Below, one piece after another: positions 1-10,169 of a DNA stretch of 64,000 nt. Below the pieces are notes generated by a model. The model was given only the letters and a program-made list of their open reading frames with translations. It did not search any database and was not told where the DNA came from. Source of the DNA: an uncultured Porphyrobacter sp. (GTDB lineage: Bacteria; Pseudomonadota; Alphaproteobacteria; Sphingomonadales; Sphingomonadaceae); assembly GCA_964500135.1 (NCBI GenBank), contig CAZCNF010000010.1, forward strand, positions 8,435 through 72,434, written 5' to 3'. The position numbers and the translations under genes were made by a program. The first letter of the stretch is position 1. Each line of letters starts with the position of its first letter.

Positions 1-1569
1 AACGAGCTTCCCGATACCTGGTCCCAGGTGCCCATCAGCGAAGTCGCCGAGATCAACCCGCGAAAGAGCGTCGATTTGAATGGAGATGACCTGGTCTCAT
101 TCGTCCCGATGGCTGCCGTTGACGAAGTGTCTGGCACTATCGCCGCACCGATTGATCGGCCTTACAGCGAAGTCTCGAAAGGGTTCACCCACTTCCGTGA
201 CGAAGACGTGATCTTCGCGAAAATTACGCCTTCGATGGAAAACGGCAAGTCGGCAGTCGCTCGCGACCTGACCAATGGCACTGGCATGGGTTCAACTGAA
301 TTCCATGTGTTCCGCAGCTACGGGGCAATCGAGCCGGAATATCTCTGGCGTTACATCAGGCAACAATCGTTCCGTGATGATGCGCAGACTGTCATGTCGG
401 GTGCCGTTGGCCAGCAACGAGTCCCAGCGGAGTGGCTGAAGGAATACATGATCCCGCTCGCGCCGAAGGCCGAGCAGGGGCGCATCGTGAAGAAGGTGGA
501 CAGCCTGACCACACGCACCGCCCGTGCCCTCAAAGAGCTGGACCACGTCCCCGACCTCATCGCCCGATACAAGCGATCTCTATTGGGGAACATGTTCGAA
601 CGGCTTGCTGCGGAGCATGGCACACAGCCACTGGCAGAGCTTACAACGAAAATTGGAAGTGGAGCTACTCCACGTGGCGGTTCGAGCGTCTACGTGGAGC
701 AAGGAACTCCCTTTATTAGATCTCAAAACGTCTATTTCGAGGGCTTCGAGTATGAGGGATTGGCATTTATCGACGACGCTGCTGCCAAGGCTCTTTCAAA
801 TGTGACAACAGAAGAAAATGACGTTCTGCTAAACATTACCGGAGCATCAATCGGCAGAGCCACTATCCTGCCGGATGAGCTGGCTGGTGGCCGGGTGAAC
901 CAGCATGTCTCGATTTTACGCTGCAAACCTAATCTGCTGAACTTGTTCCTTCTGTATTTTCTATGGTCCCCTGAAATGCAGAAACTGATCAATGACGAGA
1001 ATTATGGCGTCACACGGCAAGCCCTAACAAAGAGTATGATCGAGGGCTTCTTGGTTCCGCTACCACCACTAGAAGAACAGGCCAAAATCGTACGCCGCAT
1101 CGAATCCGCCTTTGACTGGATTGACAGTGTGGCTAATGAACATGCCTCGGCTACAAAGTTGCTCCCGAAGTTAGACGGGGCCATCCTTGCCAAAGCCTTC
1201 CAAGGCAAACTTGTCCCGCAAGATCCGAACGACGAGCCCGCGAGCGCGTTATTGGAGCGAGTAAAGAAAGCACGTGTCGCGGAGCCAAAGGTAATGCGCG
1301 GAAAAGGGGCGAATAACTCGAAGTCCCGAAAGGAAACGCAGACCATGACCAAGAACCTGGAAGAGGTGTTGTCTGAAGCCGGAGACTGGATTTCTGCACA
1401 GGAAGCGTTCGCACAGTGCGGAATTGGCGGCTCTGCAACAACAGAAGAGATCGAAAAGATCTACGCCCAGCTGCGCAAGCTCGACAAGGCGGACCGTCTT
1501 GAAGCCGAGCCGATCCATGACGAGCAGGGGCGAAAGCTGCACGATCGGCTGCGTCTGAAGGCCGCCTGA
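1..1569 (+). CDS. hsdS: Type I restriction-modification specificity subunit, 5'-truncated by window, with extra C-terminal domain
   Basis: Frame is open from base 1 (NELPDTWSQVPISEV). Two TRDs, each followed by the conserved repeat (IPLAPKAEQGRIVKKVDSL; VPLPPLEEQAKIVRRIESA), then QGKLVPQDPNDEPASALLERV and ~100 more residues. Confidence 0.92.
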   Translation, partial: NELPDTWSQVPISEVAEINPRKSVDLNGDDLVSFVPMAAVDEVSGTIAAPIDRPYSEVSKGFTHFRDEDVIFAKITPSMENGKSAVARDLTNGTGMGSTEFHVFRSYGAIEPEYLWRYIRQQSFRDDAQTVMSGAVGQQRVPAEWLKEYMIPLAPKAEQGRIVKKVDSLTTRTARALKELDHVPDLIARYKRSLLGNMFERLAAEHGTQPLAELTTKIGSGATPRGGSSVYVEQGTPFIRSQNVYFEGFEYEGLAFIDDAAAKALSNVTTEENDVLLNITGASIGRATILPDELAGGRVNQHVSILRCKPNLLNLFLLYFLWSPEMQKLINDENYGVTRQALTKSMIEGFLVPLPPLEEQAKIVRRIESAFDWIDSVANEHASATKLLPKLDGAILAKAFQGKLVPQDPNDEPASALLERVKKARVAEPKVMRGKGANNSKSRKETQTMTKNLEEVLSEAGDWISAQEAFAQCGIGGSATTEEIEKIYAQLRKLDKADRLEAEPIHDEQGRKLHDRLRLKAA

Positions 1570-1573
1570 TCCC

Positions 1574-3268
1574 ATGCGCCTGGACAAGATCACCATCGGC
1601 AGCGCGAAGGATAGCCCGACCCACTGCTTCAAGAATCTGAAAAACGTCACGGTCGATTTTGATCAGAAGCACTGGGTCACGGTGGTTATCGGGTGGAACG
1701 GCACCGGTAAATCCAACGTCCTGGAAGCCTTGGCGATCATCTTTCGTGATTTGATTCAAGGTAGTGAAAAACCAAACAAACCTGTTCGACCTGCCTTTGC
1801 GTTCAATTTGAGTTACCGCATGGGCAGCGGCGATGAAGCCCTGCATATCAGCATCGATGCAGACCCCGATCGGGACAGGGAAACGCTGATTATCCATGTC
1901 GCGACTGATGCTGAAGCAAGGGGCGTCGGAACGCTGACGCCGTTCATAGAAGGCGAACCCAAAACATCTCCGCTGCGGGGCAAGAAGATTCCCGCCAAGG
2001 CGTTCTTCGAAGCCGGAGCGCGACACTTACCGCGCTTTGTTTTCGCTTATTACTCTGGCGAAAGCGACCGTCTTTATGAGGTATTCAAGCCCTATCTGGA
2101 AACCTTCGACAGGCAACTCAGGCAAGGCAGAAATCCAGGCTTGAAGCGGCTTTTCTACGCCTTGCCGACCCACAGCCAGTTCGTCTTGTTGGCGTTTCTG
2201 ATACAGCAGTCTGACGAGGTCAGGGAGTTTCTCGCGGATCATCTTGGGATTGATCCCGAAGAAGGGATCGACTCCGTCCTGTTCGTCCTGCGCCAACCGC
2301 CCTGGGATTCGAAAGAAGGTGACCCGCGCTTTTGGTATGCGAAAGGGGTTGTCGCCGACTTCTTAAGTCGACTTCAAGACATTGCGCTTGCACCGGTCGA
2401 AATCAGCCGCCGCGTTGCCGTATCGCTGTGGAACGAGAAGACACTTCAGTTCAAGTATCTATATATAAAAGATATTGCATCACTTCGGGAGCTTGTCGGC
2501 GCACAGCGCCCGGCCGAATTCTTCCGTGACATGGAAAGTACCTACGTCTCGCAGCTGATCGAAGAAGTGCGCATCCGCGTGCGTCTCAAGAAGAATGACG
2601 GGACAGTAACATTCCGCGAGTTGAGCGAAGGCGAGCAGCAGTTGTTGACGGTCCTGGGGTTGCTCCGCTTCACCGCCGAGAGTGAAAGCCTGTTCCTGCT
2701 GGATGAGCCTGACACGCACCTCAACCCCCGCTGGGCGGTTGATTACCTCAGCTATCTCCGCAAGTTTGCCGGACAGAATGACGGTGACCGAGAGAACAGC
2801 CACATTTTGATTACGACGCACAATCCCTTGGCCATCGCAGAACTCGCGAAAGAGCAGGTGCAGATCTTATATCGGACACCGGAAGCCAAAATCGTATCAG
2901 AAAATCCTGCCCTCGATCCCAAGGGGATGGGTTTTGCAAATATAGTAACGAGCGACATGTTTGGTTTGGGCACCAGTCTCGATCAGCAGACCAATGATGA
3001 CCTGGTCGAATTGCATCATTTGTCTACCAAGACTGAACTGACGGATGAGGAGCGCACGCGGATCGTCGAATTGCGGAAGGGACTCGAGGGTTTAGACTTC
3101 AATTTTGCGATGCGCGACAGGCTTGAGCAAGAGTATCTTCGAGCTCGGTTCGACTTGGCGAACGACGGCGAAATGGACGCCGCAATCGTAACTCCGGAGA
3201 ACAAGGAAAGGGCCCTACAGGCTCTGATCACCAGCCTGCTTTCAGATTTACAGCAGGAACGCCCGTGA
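1574..3268 (+). CDS. ABC/AAA_21-type ATPase (PtuA-like defence ATPase)
   Basis: Walker A GWNGTGKS, signature LSEGE, Walker B/D-loop LFLLDEPDTHLNP, H-loop ITTHNP. Starts 4 nt after the hsdS stop. Confidence 0.88.
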   Translation: MRLDKITIGSAKDSPTHCFKNLKNVTVDFDQKHWVTVVIGWNGTGKSNVLEALAIIFRDLIQGSEKPNKPVRPAFAFNLSYRMGSGDEALHISIDADPDRDRETLIIHVATDAEARGVGTLTPFIEGEPKTSPLRGKKIPAKAFFEAGARHLPRFVFAYYSGESDRLYEVFKPYLETFDRQLRQGRNPGLKRLFYALPTHSQFVLLAFLIQQSDEVREFLADHLGIDPEEGIDSVLFVLRQPPWDSKEGDPRFWYAKGVVADFLSRLQDIALAPVEISRRVAVSLWNEKTLQFKYLYIKDIASLRELVGAQRPAEFFRDMESTYVSQLIEEVRIRVRLKKNDGTVTFRELSEGEQQLLTVLGLLRFTAESESLFLLDEPDTHLNPRWAVDYLSYLRKFAGQNDGDRENSHILITTHNPLAIAELAKEQVQILYRTPEAKIVSENPALDPKGMGFANIVTSDMFGLGTSLDQQTNDDLVELHHLSTKTELTDEERTRIVELRKGLEGLDFNFAMRDRLEQEYLRARFDLANDGEMDAAIVTPENKERALQALITSLLSDLQQERP

Positions 3269-4050
3269 GGTTCATTGCCGTCGCGCTTCCGCCCAACCTG
3301 CCGAAGAAGTGGTCCAAAGTCTACGAGGGCCGGACTTCCGGACTTGCCAGCAAGGCCACGCAAAGGCTGCGCGCCGAATACTTGACGAAAAATCCGAGCT
3401 GGGGCCGATTGAAATCATGGCTGTCGAACTTGAGCCATCAGAAGTGCTGGTATTGCGAGGCAAATAGCCGCCGTTCGCCTTTCGACGTGGATCATTTCCG
3501 GCCGAAACTCGGGGTCACCGTCGACGGTCAACCACTCCCTGACGGTTTCGGCTACTATTGGCTGGCGTACGAGTGGTGGAATTTCCGCCTGTCATGTCAG
3601 CGCTGCAATCGACCTGAAAAAATAGATCGAACGACCCGGCGAGGTAAATGGAACGAATTTCCGATTGAATCTGAGCATACGCGTTGTGCGCCAACCTCTA
3701 TCACGGTGGATCAAGAAACCCCTCGCTTCCTTGATCCCTGTGTACAATCAGATTGTGATCTGTTGGCGTATGGCATCGACGGCGAGGTCAAGCCGGCATG
3801 TCCTGCCGGGACTTGGGAGCACGAGCGTGCACGCTACACAATCGAGCAACTGGGCTTCAATGACTGGAACGTGCCGGAGGATCGAAAGAAGGCGTGGCAG
3901 ACGCTTGCCCTAGTCATTCAACACGCGCCACAACCCGAAGCTGAAGGGTGTGTCGCGTATTATTTGAGCGAAGAGCACGAATATTCCAGGTTTTTTCGGT
4001 CCGTAGTAGGAACACACCGTGATAAGCAATGGGTTGATACCCTCCTCTAG
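3265..4050 (+). CDS. HNH endonuclease (PtuB-like)
   Basis: KCWYCE...DVDHFRPK...YYWLAYEWWNFRLSCQRCN. GTG start overlaps the ATPase stop (GTGA). Confidence 0.85.
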   Translation: MRFIAVALPPNLPKKWSKVYEGRTSGLASKATQRLRAEYLTKNPSWGRLKSWLSNLSHQKCWYCEANSRRSPFDVDHFRPKLGVTVDGQPLPDGFGYYWLAYEWWNFRLSCQRCNRPEKIDRTTRRGKWNEFPIESEHTRCAPTSITVDQETPRFLDPCVQSDCDLLAYGIDGEVKPACPAGTWEHERARYTIEQLGFNDWNVPEDRKKAWQTLALVIQHAPQPEAEGCVAYYLSEEHEYSRFFRSVVGTHRDKQWVDTLL

Positions 4051-4345: not shown

Positions 4346-4738
4346 TCATCTTTGATACCAATCACCGACTTCCTTGGCGGCCGCTTCTACCGCCTTGCGG
4401 ATCTGCTCGGCCGCACCCAGCACATTGCCTTCGCCTGACTCCATGATGTCGAGCGCCTTATCGACAGTACGTTGCAGCTGATCGAGCCGATATGCCCTGT
4501 GGGAGATAGCTATTTTGCCTACTTCCTTGTGGAAGCGCTCTCGCACCAGCGCGTGATACTCGAGCCAACGGAGAGACGCTGCGAACTGAAACGATGCAGG
4601 ATCGTAGGCCCTAACGTGCCGTGGCGTGAGTATGACGCCGAACTCCTTCTCGATCAGATCCACAACGTCCGCCGGCCTCTGGAAGCAGGCAAGGTGCTCC
4701 ACGATCCGTTTCTTGATTGCCTCTGGAAGTCTTTTCAT
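4346..4738 (-). CDS. DUF2280 family protein (terminase small-subunit-like)
   Basis: MKRLPEAIKKRIVEHLACFQRPADVV..IEKEFGV..TPRHVRAYDP...IAISHRAYRL...AAAKEVGD fits the DUF2280 pattern. Start placed at ATG 4738. Confidence 0.75.
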   Translation of the reverse strand: MKRLPEAIKKRIVEHLACFQRPADVVDLIEKEFGVILTPRHVRAYDPASFQFAASLRWLEYHALVRERFHKEVGKIAISHRAYRLDQLQRTVDKALDIMESGEGNVLGAAEQIRKAVEAAAKEVGDWYQR

Positions 4739-4887
4739 AAGGTAAGTCCTGGGTAAGAAGCGCACGTCTAGGGACGTGGAAAACGCCCTAGAGTGCTCGC
4801 CAAGTTTTGAGTTTCTTGCACATCCCACGGCAGTGCACTGCCCGCTTCTCCTGGCAACTGAAGTGCCCGTTGTGAATGTTGCCAGAC

Positions 4888-6114
4888 TCAGTCTGTTACG
4901 TCTGTTACGTCTGTTACGTCTGTTACGTCTGTTACGCTTTTCCCGGGTTCCGTGAGCTTGACGTCGGTGATCGCCAAATCGGGGAGGTAACGCTTCCAAG
5001 CATCGTATAGATCTTCCCGAACATAGCCCTTGAGTGGCCCGAAATCGGTTCGAATCGATCTTGGCCGAACTTTGTATGGACTAAGAAGCGCGGCCAACTT
5101 TCGATCATCGAGCGGCTTGCCTCGAAAGTCTCCCCAAGGGGCTTCTTCATCGCTGTTGAGCGTCTCGAGAATCTTCGTTGTTGGCATCTTTTCTTCATCG
5201 CCGAAGATCTGGCGAAGGTCTGATAGCAGACGGACGCCTATGCTGGGCTTGTTGGTCTTGGAAGCCGTAACAAGCGTAACAGCCGCTACACGAGCCCGTC
5301 GTTCCCACTCCTCCCCAAACGTTGTTGCGACAGCAAGAAGCGGCTCCCAGAGGTCAGCGTCCCGATCGGCTATGCCATACGGCATAGTTGGCCGCAGTGC
5401 CCTCAATCTCGCCACGTTGCGTTCAGCCCAGCTGGCAAGCCTATCACGGAGTTTATGCCCCAGCGGCGCATGATCTCGGTATCGATAGGATTCGACCTTT
5501 TCCTCACGGCTTCGGCGCCTCATATGTATAATGATTGAGCGCGTACGGATTGTGAGTGGGAGCTCAAACAAGCCAGCGAGAGCAACCGCTGAGTAGGCCG
5601 GCAGCTCCTCGGTCTCTATCTGCCTTCCCCTTACGATGCACCGACCCGCTACTGCGCCTTTCCGGTGTCCGGCATTGAGCAGGCCCCGGATCTCTTCGTT
5701 ACCTTTGGCTTGCGGGCCAAAGATCGTGTCGATCTCATCAAACAGAATCGTTGGCCGACCGGCCTTGGCGCCAACCTTGCGGAAAAGATATGCCGGCGTG
5801 ACGTTGACCGCTTCCACTGGGTTCGGGACTAATGTCTCGGTGACCTCAAGTGCGCGTGTCTTGCCAGATCCCGGTTCGGGAGACAGAAAAGCAAGTCGAG
5901 GGGTGGAGTCCCAGGCATCCATGGCATGGGCATGAGCAATCCAGAGGACATGGGCATCGGCAGCCTCTGCGCTTGGATACACGACAAAACGACACAAGAG
6001 CCGGTGAACCATGTCCAACAAGCAGCCATCCGATTTCTCACGAGGAGCTAGGGGCATTTGGATGATTGTCCCCGATGAGTTCCCACTTGGCGCATGATGT
6101 TTGTCGAAGGTCAT
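4888..6114 (-). CDS. DUF3631-containing P-loop replication protein (primase/helicase-associated)
   Basis: P-loop SPEPGSGKT, ILFDEID, GLLNAGH, and C-terminal LLSDLRQIF...EAPW...LAALLSPYKVRP...KGY..DLYDAWKRYL typical of DUF3631. Confidence 0.8.
   Translation of the reverse strand: MTFDKHHAPSGNSSGTIIQMPLAPREKSDGCLLDMVHRLLCRFVVYPSAEAADAHVLWIAHAHAMDAWDSTPRLAFLSPEPGSGKTRALEVTETLVPNPVEAVNVTPAYLFRKVGAKAGRPTILFDEIDTIFGPQAKGNEEIRGLLNAGHRKGAVAGRCIVRGRQIETEELPAYSAVALAGLFELPLTIRTRSIIIHMRRRSREEKVESYRYRDHAPLGHKLRDRLASWAERNVARLRALRPTMPYGIADRDADLWEPLLAVATTFGEEWERRARVAAVTLVTASKTNKPSIGVRLLSDLRQIFGDEEKMPTTKILETLNSDEEAPWGDFRGKPLDDRKLAALLSPYKVRPRSIRTDFGPLKGYVREDLYDAWKRYLPDLAITDVKLTEPGKSVTDVTDVTDVTDVTD
4891..4935. 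repeat. 5 perfect tandem copies of GTCTGTTAC (iteron-like)
   Basis: Read directly; encodes the (VTD)5 C-terminus of the DUF3631 gene. Inverted variants CGTAACAAG/CGTAACAGC at 5266-5283. Confidence 0.95.
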
Positions 6115-6431
6115 GCGCCTGGGCCCTCCATATCAATGTTCTCCGCCTGCATCGCTGTGACCAGGAGGCGACGAAGGAAGAGGTTGAGGTCCTTGAGCTC
6201 GCTTTGATGGGCATGTGAGTAGACCCAAAGCGTGGCATAATCTGAGGCAATCCACGCCAACTGCCTCGCGGTATCGCTGGCTGTACTGCGGATCATGCAG
6301 CTTGCTACGTTCCTGAATGAACGCATCTTCGCTCTGAGCGCATGCTCTTCATCACTGATGCCCGGCAAGAAGATGCGGATATCGTCCGGCTCAGGAAATG
6401 CAGTGGTTGGATCTTTGGAGCTCGGCATCAC
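6111..6431 (-). CDS. Hypothetical protein
   Basis: 106-aa ORF with 4-nt overlaps to both neighbours. Confidence 0.65.
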   Translation of the reverse strand: MMPSSKDPTTAFPEPDDIRIFLPGISDEEHALRAKMRSFRNVASCMIRSTASDTARQLAWIASDYATLWVYSHAHQSELKDLNLFLRRLLVTAMQAENIDMEGPGA

Positions 6432-6616
6432 ACGTCTCCCTCAAGGAGAGCGTGCAAACTTTCTGCCGTGATCAGGGACCTGCGGCCGACCCGGCGCTTA
6501 ATTAGCTTTCCCTCTTGGATGAGCTCATAAATTCGGGTCTTTCCGAGGGATGTGAGATGGGCAGCCTGCTTGATTGAATAGGCAAGCTGCCGCTGATTCT
6601 TGATACCTTCAGTCAT
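6428..6616 (-). CDS. Excisionase/AlpA-like HTH protein
   Basis: LAYSIKQAAHLTSLGKTRIYELIQEGKL..RRVGRRSLI; GGAG RBS before ATG 6616. Confidence 0.85.
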   Translation of the reverse strand: MTEGIKNQRQLAYSIKQAAHLTSLGKTRIYELIQEGKLIKRRVGRRSLITAESLHALLEGDV

Positions 6617-6728
6617 TGGATATCTCCGTTCTACTTCGTGAACGGCCATCCAAATACACTGATGTCAGCGGACGTCAGCAACCATCGGCATGACAAAAAG
6701 CTGTACCAAGTTTTCGTCCAGAGAGGTC

Positions 6729-7340
6729 CTATGTTCGCTCTTTGCTCGCTGAAGCTAAGATCCGAACCCATTGGCCCCAAGTCAGAGACCGTGCGAGCGC
6801 AGCATTCTTTTGTTCAGCTTCCTTGTCCGCCCTTACTGCTTCCTCATACAGCTTAACCTTCCCGACATACTTGTAGACGGTATTGTCTTTGACCCCGAAT
6901 TCTTTGGCTAATTCCTTGACCAGCGACTCGACCTCGCCTTTCCGCCACCGCGCTCGGTATTCTTTTGCTATTCGGAAAGCCAAGTCCGGAGGTCGCCCAT
7001 TTTTTTTAGGCGCCCCACCTTTCGCAGCCGGCCGATCGGGATGCTCCACAACAATAAGCCGATAATCAGATCTATAGTGGGTTCCCGCAATCAGCTTTCT
7101 TAGTTCGAGAACAACCTCCCGGTCGGGTATGCCGCGCTCTTGTCGCAAATATTCACCGAGGCTATCGAGGCAACCATTCCGCAGGTCGGCCACTACGACC
7201 AGGGGGTGCACCCGTGACAAACAAGCCTTCTTGGGTAGATCATGCACAGGTTTGAAGCGCTTGTGCCGAATGCTCGTTTCCCTAACGTGCCGTACCTTTA
7301 CTAGCTTACCTTTTGCACGGCCTGAACGTCGTCTTGTCAT
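6729..7340 (-). CDS. Hypothetical basic protein with probable C-terminal HTH
   Basis: 203-aa ORF overlapping the HD gene stop; VESLVKELAKEFGVKDNTVYKYV is HTH-like. Confidence 0.55.
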   Translation of the reverse strand: MTRRRSGRAKGKLVKVRHVRETSIRHKRFKPVHDLPKKACLSRVHPLVVVADLRNGCLDSLGEYLRQERGIPDREVVLELRKLIAGTHYRSDYRLIVVEHPDRPAAKGGAPKKNGRPPDLAFRIAKEYRARWRKGEVESLVKELAKEFGVKDNTVYKYVGKVKLYEEAVRADKEAEQKNAALARSLTWGQWVRILASASKERT

Positions 7341-7909
7341 CTCCTCACCCCTTCATTTGATGCAGCAGGAGAAAGCCAATTGGCTTCCCCTAACGCCCAC
7401 TTGTCGAGGCAGGCATTCACCCCGCTGCACCCCGACATCACCTCTTTGGCGAACTGGAGGTATTGAGCCTTCCGATTCTCGCTCCAATTTGGCGGCGCAG
7501 CCTTGATGTCTCTTAAGTTCGCAATCTTATCGGCGATCTTGATGAGCTTGGCGTCATTCGACTTCCTTGGCGCATTGAGCACCTGCAGGCGCTTGCGCTC
7601 AGCCTTTGGGAGGGTCTTGTCGTCGGTGACTTCGAGAACCAGGGAACATATCCGCTCACCAAAGACAGCGGCCAATTCCTCTGCCGTGGTCTCGGTGTCC
7701 TCGATCGTGTCGTGCAGGATGGCCGCTACGAGGATGTCCGTGTCGTCAATTCCAGCCTCGGTCAGGATCCGGGCCACCTCGAGCGGGTGGTTGATGTAGG
7801 GCGTGGCACCTACGTCCTTACGTCGCTGGTTCCTGTGGCGGTCCGCCGCGAAACAGGCAGCCTCAAGCAGCCTTGCAGCGTCAGTCTTCGTCCTCTTCAA
7901 TTCTTCCAT
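7337..7909 (-). CDS. Stand-alone RSH-type HD hydrolase (Mesh1/small alarmone hydrolase-like)
   Basis: FAADRHRNQRRK..TPYINHPLEVA...AAILHDTIEDT...EVTDDK...KIADKIANLRD; GGAGG RBS. Confidence 0.88.
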   Translation of the reverse strand: MEELKRTKTDAARLLEAACFAADRHRNQRRKDVGATPYINHPLEVARILTEAGIDDTDILVAAILHDTIEDTETTAEELAAVFGERICSLVLEVTDDKTLPKAERKRLQVLNAPRKSNDAKLIKIADKIANLRDIKAAPPNWSENRKAQYLQFAKEVMSGCSGVNACLDKWALGEANWLSPAASNEGVRR

Positions 7910-8564
7910 ACCTTACCTCCATGCGTTGGCTGAGCTCGTCGAACACGTCGACGATGTGGACCTCACGTCCCGGTGACATTGCTTCCAGCAGCCCTGCGGT
8001 CTCGAGCACGCACCGCGTCCAGTCGGGACGTTCGGTGACGCGGGCAAAGCACTCCTTCTCGAGGAAACTCCCCCATTTGCGGTGCTCTCTCGCCCGCTGG
8101 TCCTCGAACAGGTCGATCTGCGGGTCGAACAGCAGTCGGCGATAATGCGAGCAGAACCCGGCCCAGGGCAGGTAGAACTCGCCTAGGTCCAAAGCCGAGC
8201 GGTCGAACAGGCTGTCAGGTGGGTTGGCGCGCGGGTTGATCAGTTCGACCGCGTAGCAATAGCGCTGCCGGCACAGCCAGATCAGTTCCTTGAGATCGCT
8301 CTCGGACGAGCGCTTCTGATGGAACACCATCTCGTCGAGGCTCATGGTCGCGTCCGAGACGTGAAGCTGACCGGTGGGTCGAAAATAGACGGGTAGCCCG
8401 GATTGAGCCTTGAACTGGCTCTGGGCAAGTTGGTGCATCGGCAGTCTCCTAAAAGGACACCGAACCTTCTGCGCTGCTGGTTGGAACCCAACAGAGCCTT
8501 GAGGCTCGGGTTCGTCAGCAACTTCCTGATTTTCAGGGAGGTCGAGAACTTCTCTCGACGACAA
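7881..8564 (-). CDS. Hypothetical protein, start uncertain (TTG 8564 or an internal ATG)
   Basis: Long ORF filling the gap between integrase and HD gene on the same strand; no motif recognised. Confidence 0.5.
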   Translation of the reverse strand: MSSREVLDLPENQEVADEPEPQGSVGFQPAAQKVRCPFRRLPMHQLAQSQFKAQSGLPVYFRPTGQLHVSDATMSLDEMVFHQKRSSESDLKELIWLCRQRYCYAVELINPRANPPDSLFDRSALDLGEFYLPWAGFCSHYRRLLFDPQIDLFEDQRAREHRKWGSFLEKECFARVTERPDWTRCVLETAGLLEAMSPGREVHIVDVFDELSQRMEVRYGRIEEDED

Positions 8565-8679
8565 TCACGATACGAAAACTGCGCCGCTTAGCAACTCAAA
8601 ACCAACGCATCCGGCCCATTCACCGACAGCTGCATCTTCTGTGCAACACTCATAACAAAGGGCTGAGTCTAGCCGCTCG

Positions 8680-9897
8680 TCACGCACGGTTGGCCAGCTT
8701 GACCACCTCACCGCCATCCCTCAGCTGGTCGAGATAATCGCTCCACCACTGCGCCATGCGCACGCGCTCGTCCCAGTGCTGGCCACGGTGGTAAATGCCG
8801 CGCACGACGTTCTGGTCCTGGTGCGCCAGCGCACGCTCGATCGCGTCATGGCTCCACAGGCCGGATTCGTTGAGTAAGGTAGACGCCGTAGCCCGCAGGC
8901 CATGCGCGGTCATCTCGTCGCCGGTGTAGCCCATGCGGCGCAGCGCGCCGTTGATCGTGTTCTCACTCATCGGCCGATCCTTCGAAGCCAGCGAACGGAA
9001 CACGTAGCGCGATCCGCCGTTGAGACCGCGCAACTGCTCAAGCAGCCCAAGGACCTGATGGGAGAGCGGAACGGCATGCGGCCGGCGCGATTTCATCTTG
9101 CCGGCAGGGATACGCCAAACCGATGCCTCGAGGTCGAACTCCTCCCATTCCGCGTGGCGCAGTTCGCCCGGGCGGACGAAGACATGCGGCGCCATCCGCA
9201 GCGCAAACAGCGTCGTGTGATTGCCTTCGTACTTTTCGATCGCACGCAGCAGTCCGCCAAGTTCAACCGGATCGGTGATTGCGGCATAGTGTTTGGGCTT
9301 GGGGGAGATCAGCGCGCCCTTCAGCGGCGCGCAAGGGTCATGCTCGGCGCGCAGGGTCGAGACCGCAAAGCGGAACACGCGGCTGGCAAAGCTGCGCAGC
9401 CGGCGTGCCTTCTCGTAATTGCCCTTCTGCTCGTAACGCTTGAGTGTGGCGAGCATCTCATGCGGCGTGATCTCGGCGATCGGTCGGTGCCCGATCGACT
9501 TGTTGAGCACGCTCGCCAGCCAGTTCGACTTGACCAGTGTCGCCATGGCCAACCCCTCGGCCTCGCGCTTGGCGATGTATTCAAATGCAACGGCCTGGAA
9601 GGTGTCGCCTTGCCGGATGATCGCGGCGATCTTCTCCTCGCGCCTGCGCCGCGCGGGATCACCGCCCCGCCCGACCTCGACCCGCGCTTCGTCGCGCATC
9701 AGCCGCGCCTCCTTGAGGCCGACCTCGGGGTAGCGGCCGAAGGAGAGTTTCTTCTCCTTGCCGAGCTGGCGATATTTCATCCGCCACAGCTTCGAGCCGT
9801 TGGGCCGGATCAGGAGATAGAGCCCGCCGCCATCGGACAGCTTCCAGTCGCGCTCGCGCGGCGTAGCTTGCTTCACCTGCAGATCAGTCAATGCCAT
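8680..9897 (-). CDS. P4-like tyrosine integrase with Arm DNA-binding domain
   Basis: LSDGGGLYLL..GSKLWRMKYR N-domain; catalytic VRPGELR, HGLR, LAH, GIY; GGAGG RBS before ATG 9897. Confidence 0.95.
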   Translation of the reverse strand: MALTDLQVKQATPRERDWKLSDGGGLYLLIRPNGSKLWRMKYRQLGKEKKLSFGRYPEVGLKEARLMRDEARVEVGRGGDPARRRREEKIAAIIRQGDTFQAVAFEYIAKREAEGLAMATLVKSNWLASVLNKSIGHRPIAEITPHEMLATLKRYEQKGNYEKARRLRSFASRVFRFAVSTLRAEHDPCAPLKGALISPKPKHYAAITDPVELGGLLRAIEKYEGNHTTLFALRMAPHVFVRPGELRHAEWEEFDLEASVWRIPAGKMKSRRPHAVPLSHQVLGLLEQLRGLNGGSRYVFRSLASKDRPMSENTINGALRRMGYTGDEMTAHGLRATASTLLNESGLWSHDAIERALAHQDQNVVRGIYHRGQHWDERVRMAQWWSDYLDQLRDGGEVVKLANRA

Positions 9898-9912
9898 GGG
9901 GTCCACCTCCAA

Positions 9913-9979
9913 TAGGGGGCGATTCCGGCGTCATTTTCGCTGGGGGCCTCAGGGCAAAAAAGGCCCCCAGGGCCCCCAG
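9913..9979. repeat. Probable integrase arm-type sites
   Basis: CTGGGGGCCT (9940-9949) is inverted to AGGCCCCCAG (9961-9970); direct copy GGCCCCCAG 9971-9979; TAGGGGGC 9913-9920. Confidence 0.6.
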
Positions 9980-10082
9980 GTCGAAAATGGACGTTGGCGA
10001 ACGCCTCCGAACAGCTCGGAGAATTTTCTACCATATTTCAGTGGGTTTTGGAATTGCCGGCGAACAAAGCCGGAAGAACAAA

Positions 10083-10169
<87 letters not shown>

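Follow-up and report, generated by a model that had tools for sequence, protein, structure and literature searches.

The stretch of DNA considered here (the window) comprises 64,000 nucleotides (nt) from an uncultured Porphyrobacter sp., bases 8435-72434 of contig C10. It opens with the last genes of a type I restriction-modification (R-M) operon, in which the specificity gene hsdS is followed by genes for an ABC ATPase and an HNH nuclease resembling PtuA and PtuB of the Septu defense system. The locus is part of a clade-wide, R-M-coupled variant of Septu. Its HsdS protein ends in an additional winged-helix domain (the tail), and the comparative data point to a dependence of the PtuA-PtuB pair (PtuAB) on this tail. 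PtuAB is very probably coupled physically to HsdS. By analogy with other systems, the chances are about even that PtuAB is a Septu-type effector which stands behind hsdS, guards the R-M system and fires when anti-restriction proteins jam the methyltransferase.

The linkage to hsdS is specific to this clade of ATPases. It was assessed in 107 ATPase loci: the locus of the window (own locus), eight genome contigs, three loci from a sample of 401 genomes, seven of eight plasmid matches, eight viral contigs and, from metagenomes, the best 80 of 171 matches. Clustering reduces these to 91 groups at 90% identity and to 25 at 70%; one plasmid match (H6) and one phage match (H9) lie outside the set. 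Adjacency could be judged where 250 nt or more of upstream sequence are present, which is so in 105 loci (L092 and L106 have no upstream DNA). In 104 of the 105, hsdS lies directly upstream of the ATPase gene (102 found by script, L020 and L026 individually), and the sole exception, L007, is what a deletion has left over, with an ATPase that is itself broken. The gap between hsdS and ptuA is usually 2 nt (45 of 72 loci), and a PtuB match follows the ATPase in 102 of 106 loci. There are two main layouts, R-M-(x)-S-A-B and R-S-A-B-M; of 105 plus-strand loci, 66 have hsdM downstream of ptuB, which places the pair inside the operon. In all of eight loci found later the ATPase is again behind hsdS; one is from a congener, one from E. 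coli, and the other six belong to the phylum of L009.

The 401 genomes also served as a control. All seven ATPases that the TIGR04435 model detected there with a score of at least 75 bits lie behind hsdS; three of these loci are already counted above. Among the weaker, distant PtuA-like ATPases (below 75 bits), hsdS is upstream in none of the eight that could be assessed, a count that leaves out L137 and L139, which have no upstream DNA. A preliminary description of this DNA, made from its letters alone, had stated that its proposal would fall if homologs of the ATPase showed no preference for a place beside hsdS; the linkage found here does not refute it. A quickly built tree places all hsdS-linked rows on one side of a single branch (support 81). 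A core clade of 32 rows has a support of 99; for the wider group of 37 rows that includes TIGR04435-like proteins (support 81), the status of a single clade is neither shown nor rejected.

The rest of the R-M operon is kept unevenly. Of the 41 long-flank loci, 40 have hsdM, and 13 either lack hsdR or carry a copy with an internal deletion. In L005 (7519-8247) and L038 (5699-6187), in-frame internal deletions have cut hsdR to its two ends, and hsdS, ptuAB and hsdM are retained. One of 5426 E. coli genomes matched the probe (L149:3050-8749); it carries hsdM-hsdS-ptuA-ptuB without an adjacent hsdR, between genes of the mutS region and flhA, and might provide a native test system.

The HsdS proteins of this clade are unusual at their C-terminal ends. 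In the own locus HsdS runs about 120 residues beyond the usual end, first with a basic linker and then with a domain of 74 residues. Among 1.84 billion proteins searched, this domain turned up in 115, nearly always at the C-terminus, together with twelve proteins of 70-82 residues that start at the first residue of the tail. The predicted fold is a winged helix (pLDDT, the predicted score in the local distance difference test, 93.7), with an isoelectric point of 5.1 and a median net charge of -2.5. The tail profile matches 93 of the 105 loci, the remainder bearing other extensions, and tail and HsdS core share one reading frame in 90 of the 93; the other three have less than 500 nt upstream. 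With a median identity of 64% the tail is conserved like PtuA, compared with 35% for the HsdS core and 32% for PtuB. Within the 401 sampled genomes the tail was found in two only and is linked to ptuA in both, in a test of whether the tail implies ptuA that scored at most 14 candidates per genome, a scan of contigs being precluded by the variability of the tail alignment. A tblastn search of plasmids with the tail gave no match, and searches of the ESM Atlas gave unnamed clusters only. Neither the tail nor its internal start, described below, appears in the preliminary description.

The best fold match of the tail is Scc1 (6qpq_D; Z 7.7, root-mean-square deviation 3.3, 70 residues aligned), within one Z unit of many other winged helices. 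Kleisins bind the base of the ATPase head. An analogy with them was dropped, since Scc1 is tied with generic winged helices and the predicted site on PtuA is an insert, not the base of the head. A DNA-binding role of the tail is thought unlikely, because the domain is acidic and its conserved surface falls in the predicted interface with PtuA.

It is likely that hsdS yields two products, the full HsdS with its tail and a free tail of 74 residues made from an internal start. This was evaluated in 72 dereplicated loci, leaving out 5 of the 93 tails, which score below 50 bits, against 4101 control windows in the same genes. An in-frame start codon precedes the tail in 72 of 72 loci (33 ATG, 37 GTG, 2 TTG) and occurs in 1243 of the 4101 controls; a Shine-Dalgarno duplex of -4 kcal/mol or stronger is present in 68 loci as compared with 252 controls. 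In the own locus the duplex energy of AAGGAA is -5.6 kcal/mol. Codon choice at the site follows the same trend: Lys-Glu is written AAGGAG in 44 of 49 cases at the site and in 20 of 97 elsewhere, and Val is written GTG in 73 of 90 cases as against 751 of 2331. At the level of protein, Met stands at the tail start in 74 of 92 sequences, compared with 1-6 of 91-92 in neighboring windows. After clustering at 70% identity, the start codon is present in 11 of 11 and the Shine-Dalgarno site in 10 of 11.

As judged from sequence identities, the tail exchanges together with the ATPase and not with the R-M genes. Four operons have an HsdM 73-79% identical, and a DUF4357 protein 72-75% identical, to those of the own locus. 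In L002 the tail (78%) and the ATPase (91%) are also close to their own counterparts. In L152, L019 and L027 foreign tails (9-18%) are paired with foreign ATPases (25-33%), and in L152 this is so despite a second target-recognition domain that is 86% identical to the own one. L152 (8001-12279), which comes from a congener, combines the same R-M operon with a TIGR04435-like ATPase; its nuclease and its tail are different ones as well, and it offers a natural control of specificity. Over 46 loci the identity of the tail tracks that of PtuA (rho 0.64; partial 0.49) and not that of PtuB (0.11).

Structure prediction suggests what the tail may hold on to. The tail is predicted to bind a beta-sheet insert of PtuA: the predicted complex scores 0.82 in three runs, and the best of three controls scores 0.00. 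Among solved complexes, 116 of 157 reach the mark used for this score, as do 2 of 215 mismatched pairs; these figures apply approximately, since the alignments used here were self-made. The runs share at least 96% of their contacts, with a partner pLDDT of at least 88, and place residues A18, Q19, F22, E37, Y40, L43, R44 and D67 of the tail against PtuA residues 233-333. Positions of the tail in the interface are better conserved than its remainder (0.82 vs 0.68, p 0.006). Fold and sequence searches found no solved complex of this kind.

In some organisms the coupling of HsdS and ATPase is covalent. There are 223 matches to long homologs of the ATPase; an HsdS Pfam domain is found in 119 of the 120 that were listed, and HsdS is N-terminal to the ATPase in all 120. 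The median spacing between the two parts in these fusions is 164 residues, and 163 residues separate them when the two genes of the own locus are read through. A shortened tail-like segment lies between the two parts and is recognizable by its motif in 95 of the 120. In an hhalign comparison the segment pairs with residues 8-47 of the tail (probability 53%, E 1.4e-4); a search with just the tail profile misses it. Met precedes the segment in 111 of the 120, as compared with 5-36 of 120 in control windows, and the insert residues S234, L236, A273, P274 and Y295 of PtuA are retained in 118-120 of them.

By combining these observations, it is possible to outline how such a guard might work. The 74-residue tail of HsdS would dock PtuA and PtuB onto the methyltransferase. 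If PtuA is oligomeric, as in solved PtuAB complexes, the free tail would occupy most PtuA subunits of the oligomer, and the tail of HsdS would tie one of them to the M2S methyltransferase. In the fusions, the same internal start would yield free tail-PtuA in addition to the tethered HsdS-tail-PtuA chain. Both architectures would result in one HsdS-tethered and several free tail-bound copies of the ATPase, an arrangement that fits the oligomeric retron and Septu PtuAB complexes described in PMC12673091. The binding of a DNA mimic or another R-M inhibitor to M2S would then send a signal through HsdS to PtuA. PtuA would release PtuB, which would cleave tRNA or DNA, and the infection would be aborted. 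The tail is taken here to be a signaling adaptor and not an antitoxin. This guard reading is favored because of its analogy with PrrC and Ronin (PMC12707154; bioRxiv 2023.04.06.535777 and 2024.01.29.577857).

If the guard reading is true, the clade represents a third mode of PtuAB, beside stand-alone Septu and retron control, in which a small protein adaptor links the pair to a type I methyltransferase. Since the tail domain, its start codon within hsdS and the residues of the predicted interface can be named, the hold and release of guard effectors by R-M enzymes become testable with point mutants. Part of what PADLOC reports as stand-alone Septu would likely be R-M-dependent and may fail when cloned as two genes.

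Several points weigh against the guard reading. Defense, toxicity, binding and triggering of this operon are all proposed from sequences and models. The identity of the tail correlates equally well with that of the HsdS core (0.70) and HsdM (0.72), related loci not being independent, and the PtuA side of the predicted interface shows no higher conservation than the insert does elsewhere (0.83 vs 0.81, p 0.4). The tail profile misses 12 of the 105 loci, the tail of L152 has no profile likeness to the own tail, and for distant subclades the resemblance among tails is one seen by eye only. Several distant loci (L018, L132, L019, L025) have a weaker internal start or none, and the fusions amount to only three clusters at 60% identity, maybe of a single origin. 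Ordinary type I loci, too, commonly lose hsdR and keep hsdM and hsdS. In L078 (7411-7998), an in-frame deletion has taken the second target-recognition domain out of HsdS and left about 22 residues of the tail, yet the PtuA and PtuB motifs are intact, as are hsdM and hsdR; this is one metagenome contig, for which misassembly is possible. In L185 an ATPase-TOPRIM protein follows an hsdS without a tail. Finally, stand-alone Septu defends without any partner (PMC13096335).

Most of these features could also be understood in other ways. It is possible, although on balance unlikely, that the cassette is a second restriction arm, in which M2S with its tail finds unmethylated sites, brings PtuAB to them and so replaces HsdR; PtuB would cut the phage DNA or start a sequence-dependent abortive infection. 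The predicted tether and the fusions fit this equally well. Consistent with it, hsdR is lacking or internally deleted in 12 of the 40 loci with long flanks in which hsdM, hsdS and ptuAB are retained, and also in E. coli MB06233; the NPPF/NPPY motif of HsdM is kept in 81 of 81 full-length copies; target-recognition domains keep exchanging (20-86% identity); and PtuAB of stand-alone Septu nicks DNA (PMC12673091). However, hsdR is kept in 28 of the 40, which would make another arm redundant, related PtuAB pairs cleave tRNA-Tyr (PMC13096335, PMC12673091), and the hsdR-less HsdMS of Ronin can be a decoy sensor that does not methylate (bioRxiv 10.1101/2023.04.06.535777). A broader proposal, which must be considered equally doubtful, is that of a modular class of type I R-M systems: a gene within hsdS would make a tethered and a free adaptor for interchangeable ABC-ATPase/nuclease cassettes, the methyltransferase would aim or trigger the nuclease by DNA sequence, and HsdR would be dispensable. 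The specificity of the nuclease would in that case be reprogrammed through swaps of target-recognition domains. Rather improbable is the idea that the free winged helix is a third subunit of a PtuAB system that works independently of R-M and only borrows its expression by the join to hsdS. Strong selection acts on the internal start, tail and ATPase travel as a single cassette, the twelve short proteins begin at the tail start, PtuAB is intact in four loci where the hsdS core is interrupted and the tail frame survives (L008, L055, L075, L087), and embedded systems can act alone (bioRxiv 10.1101/2024.01.29.577857). All of this would agree with a hitch-hiking cassette, but the tail is nearly always in frame with the HsdS core, tail-ptuA-ptuB is found apart from an R-M operon in none of the 105 loci, and the fusions retain the entire HsdS core.

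The preliminary description had cast the R-M complex as sensor and antitoxin in the place of a retron's, so that the loss of HsdS would free a suicidal nuclease. For the physical link in this proposal there is now a candidate in the predicted binding of tail to PtuA and in the natural fusions; its antitoxin part finds no support. An antitoxin reading, where HsdS uses the tail to cage a toxic PtuAB that is released by loss or displacement of HsdS, could draw on the same predicted binding, on the toxicity of retron-type PtuAB in the absence of reverse transcriptase (RT) and its multicopy single-stranded DNA (msDNA) (PMC12673091), and on the position of the free tail just ahead of ptuA, which is the usual place of an antitoxin. 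It is nonetheless very unlikely: PtuA and PtuB keep their motifs in L078, where most of the tail is gone, and in the four loci with interrupted hsdS, and in the fusions the tail-like segment belongs to the same chain as the ATPase and could not be lost. That a stand-alone Septu has landed by chance beside a type I R-M system, as neighbors in defense islands do, is hardly credible. The PADLOC label (Septu type I) and the low-GC island agree with it; the near-constant adjacency in the clade, which the distant controls lack, the tail, the co-exchange and the fusions contradict it.

Comparison with known systems shows that the layout is partly known. Type I Septu (8EEA; Ec-B88, PMC13096335) consists, as here, of an ABC ATPase followed by an HNH nuclease, with no RT. 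It is known as a stand-alone system of two genes, unlike the present clade with its hsdS linkage, predicted tail-binding insert and HsdS fusions. The ATPase model matches 8eea with E 2.9e-12, a TM score of 0.37 and 13% identity, and the AlphaFold model matches PtuA chains of retrons and Septu at about 13-15% identity. In type I-A retrons (Eco7/Ec78; PMC12673091, PMC12819146) PtuAB is co-opted by a partner, as it would be here; retron PtuA has partner-specific additions and clusters by partner, PtuB does not, and the same pattern is seen in this clade. The partner of the retron pair is msDNA, whereas here it is a protein domain. A retron was rejected as an explanation: the genome, 99.93% complete, has no PF00078 match and the operon no RT, Rfam gave no match in contig bases 1-13000, and the gap upstream of ptuA is only 4 nt. 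An upstream RT or noncoding RNA that accounts for the pair had been named in the preliminary description as undoing its proposal; neither an RT in the genome nor an Rfam match upstream was found. The Ec78 families of PtuA and PtuB (NF041760, NF041761) are far below their cut-offs (49.2 of 500 and 29 of 150 bits).

The best NCBIfam match of the ATPase is TIGR04435, 'restriction system-associated AAA family ATPase' (145.7 bits, below the cut-off of 300). Members of this family follow hsdS too, in a type I R-M cluster like that of the own locus, and join the clade in the tree described above; they differ in having 25-27% identity, another tail and another partner nuclease. The name records the R-M link of this sister family; a literature search found no paper naming TIGR04435. 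PrrC is a single chain that includes a HEPN anticodon nuclease. The clade differs from it in the separate HNH gene and the dedicated HsdS tail, and the ATPase has no HEPN match. Like the ATPase of the clade, PrrC is an ABC-ATPase effector encoded within a type I R-M operon; the enzyme EcoprrI holds it and Stp triggers it (PMC12707154; bioRxiv 10.1101/2024.01.29.577857). In Ronin, HsdMS senses anti-restriction proteins and has a linked effector (bioRxiv 10.1101/2023.04.06.535777), and versions of the present module without hsdR exist as well. The Ronin effector is a membrane protein of 61 amino acids (aa) in a locus without hsdR, as distinct from the intact hsdR and the ATPase and HNH genes after hsdS in the own locus. 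The nesting of cassettes, Septu included, in R-M, BREX, DISARM and Hma operons is a described class of embedded systems (Payne et al., bioRxiv 10.1101/2024.01.29.577857); those systems were chosen as also working alone, and in the portions available no physical tether to HsdS is described. The MADS families MAD2, MAD3 and MAD5 stay below their cut-offs (86.5 of 720, 30.6 of 420 and 60.8 of 400 bits). In the accessible text of PMC13096335, PMC12673091, PMC12819146, PMC12707154, PMC12839542, PMC8565338, bioRxiv 2022.08.21.504612 and, with their supplements outside the search, bioRxiv 2023.04.06.535777 and 2024.01.29.577857, no account was found of PtuAB tied to HsdS, of the tail or its internal start, or of an interface between tail and PtuA.

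L185 (2469-9433) represents a different R-M-linked effector, in which the ATPase-TOPRIM protein comes after the tail-less specificity gene and a long methyltransferase. The N-terminal extension of this protein may be a winged helix. It was considered as a winged-helix-ATPase fusion and is not counted as support, since the extension is unlike the tail.

Table 1. Features of the operon (window positions unless a contig is given)
Feature	Position	Strand	Remarks
hsdR, hsdM, 8xMP and DUF4357 protein genes	G000:C10:1872-8435		Upstream of the window
hsdS, type I specificity subunit	1..1569	+	523 aa, counting the ATG 3 nt before the window
HsdS layout			N to C: two target-recognition domains, basic linker, winged-helix tail
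Predicted internal ribosome-binding site and start inside hsdS	1330..1347	+	AAGGAA at 1330-1335 (Lys-Glu codons); in-frame ATG at 1345-1347
Acidic winged-helix tail of HsdS	1345..1569	+	74 aa; a free form is also predicted; putative adaptor that binds PtuA
ptuA-like ABC ATPase	1574..3268	+	564 aa; Walker A, signature, Walker B and H-loop intact
Beta-sheet insert of PtuA	2270..2572	+	Residues 233-333; predicted binding surface for the tail
ptuB-like HNH nuclease	3265..4050	+	261 aa; GTG start, zinc-finger cysteines, His77

The tight hsdS-ATPase-HNH operon of the preliminary description is borne out in its reading frames, its 4-nt gap (TCCC) between hsdS and the ATPase gene and its 4-nt overlap (GTGA) between the latter and the HNH gene. 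Its remark that no hsdR follows is correct; hsdR and hsdM sit upstream instead. The type I set of hsdR, hsdM and hsdS is complete at the locus: HsdR (1126 aa) matches PRK11448 with 1515 bits (cut-off 729), HsdM (490 aa) matches N6_Mtase, and HsdS has two Methylase_S repeats. The successive genes hsdR, hsdM, 8xMP, DUF4357 and hsdS are joined by overlaps of 4 nt. The PtuA/PtuB architecture is likewise upheld by PADLOC, which assigns the ATPase to PtuA (PDLC00302, 829 bits over residues 1-559) and the HNH protein to PtuB (PDLC00343, 197 bits) and files the pair as Septu type I. The motifs of the ATPase are at G40-S47 (Walker A), L350-Q356 (signature), D377/E378 (Walker B) and H416, and those of the HNH protein are C61xxC64, D76-H77, N106 and C111xxC114-N115. 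Scans for promoters, terminators and repeats gave nothing above chance within the operon.

Two genes between hsdM and hsdS accompany the system. The 8xMP gene (PF24838; L001:6718-7515), present in L002, L019 and L030 and absent in L027, L029 and L152, looks like a second optional effector of the operon. The gene for the DUF4357 protein (L001:7512-8435) accompanies hsdR and hsdM, and its product remains 72-75% identical among operons with differing ATPase cassettes; the copy in L019 is annotated as a member of the GIY-YIG nuclease family.

The operon lies within a stretch of low guanine-plus-cytosine (GC) content (about 0.53-0.58, as compared with 0.644 for the genome) that extends from the start of the contig through an integrase gene and a tRNA-Leu gene at window positions 8680-10169. 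No second attachment site was found on contig C10. The minus strand of window positions 4346-10169 carries satellite-like genes, namely those for a DUF2280 protein, a DUF3631 protein, an open reading frame of 73 aa which we take to resemble AlpA, an HD-domain protein and a tyrosine integrase, the last adjoining tRNA-Leu(CAG). At the end of the DUF3631 gene, tandem 9-nt repeats (window 4891-4945) encode a repeated unit of three residues and are possibly a replication origin.

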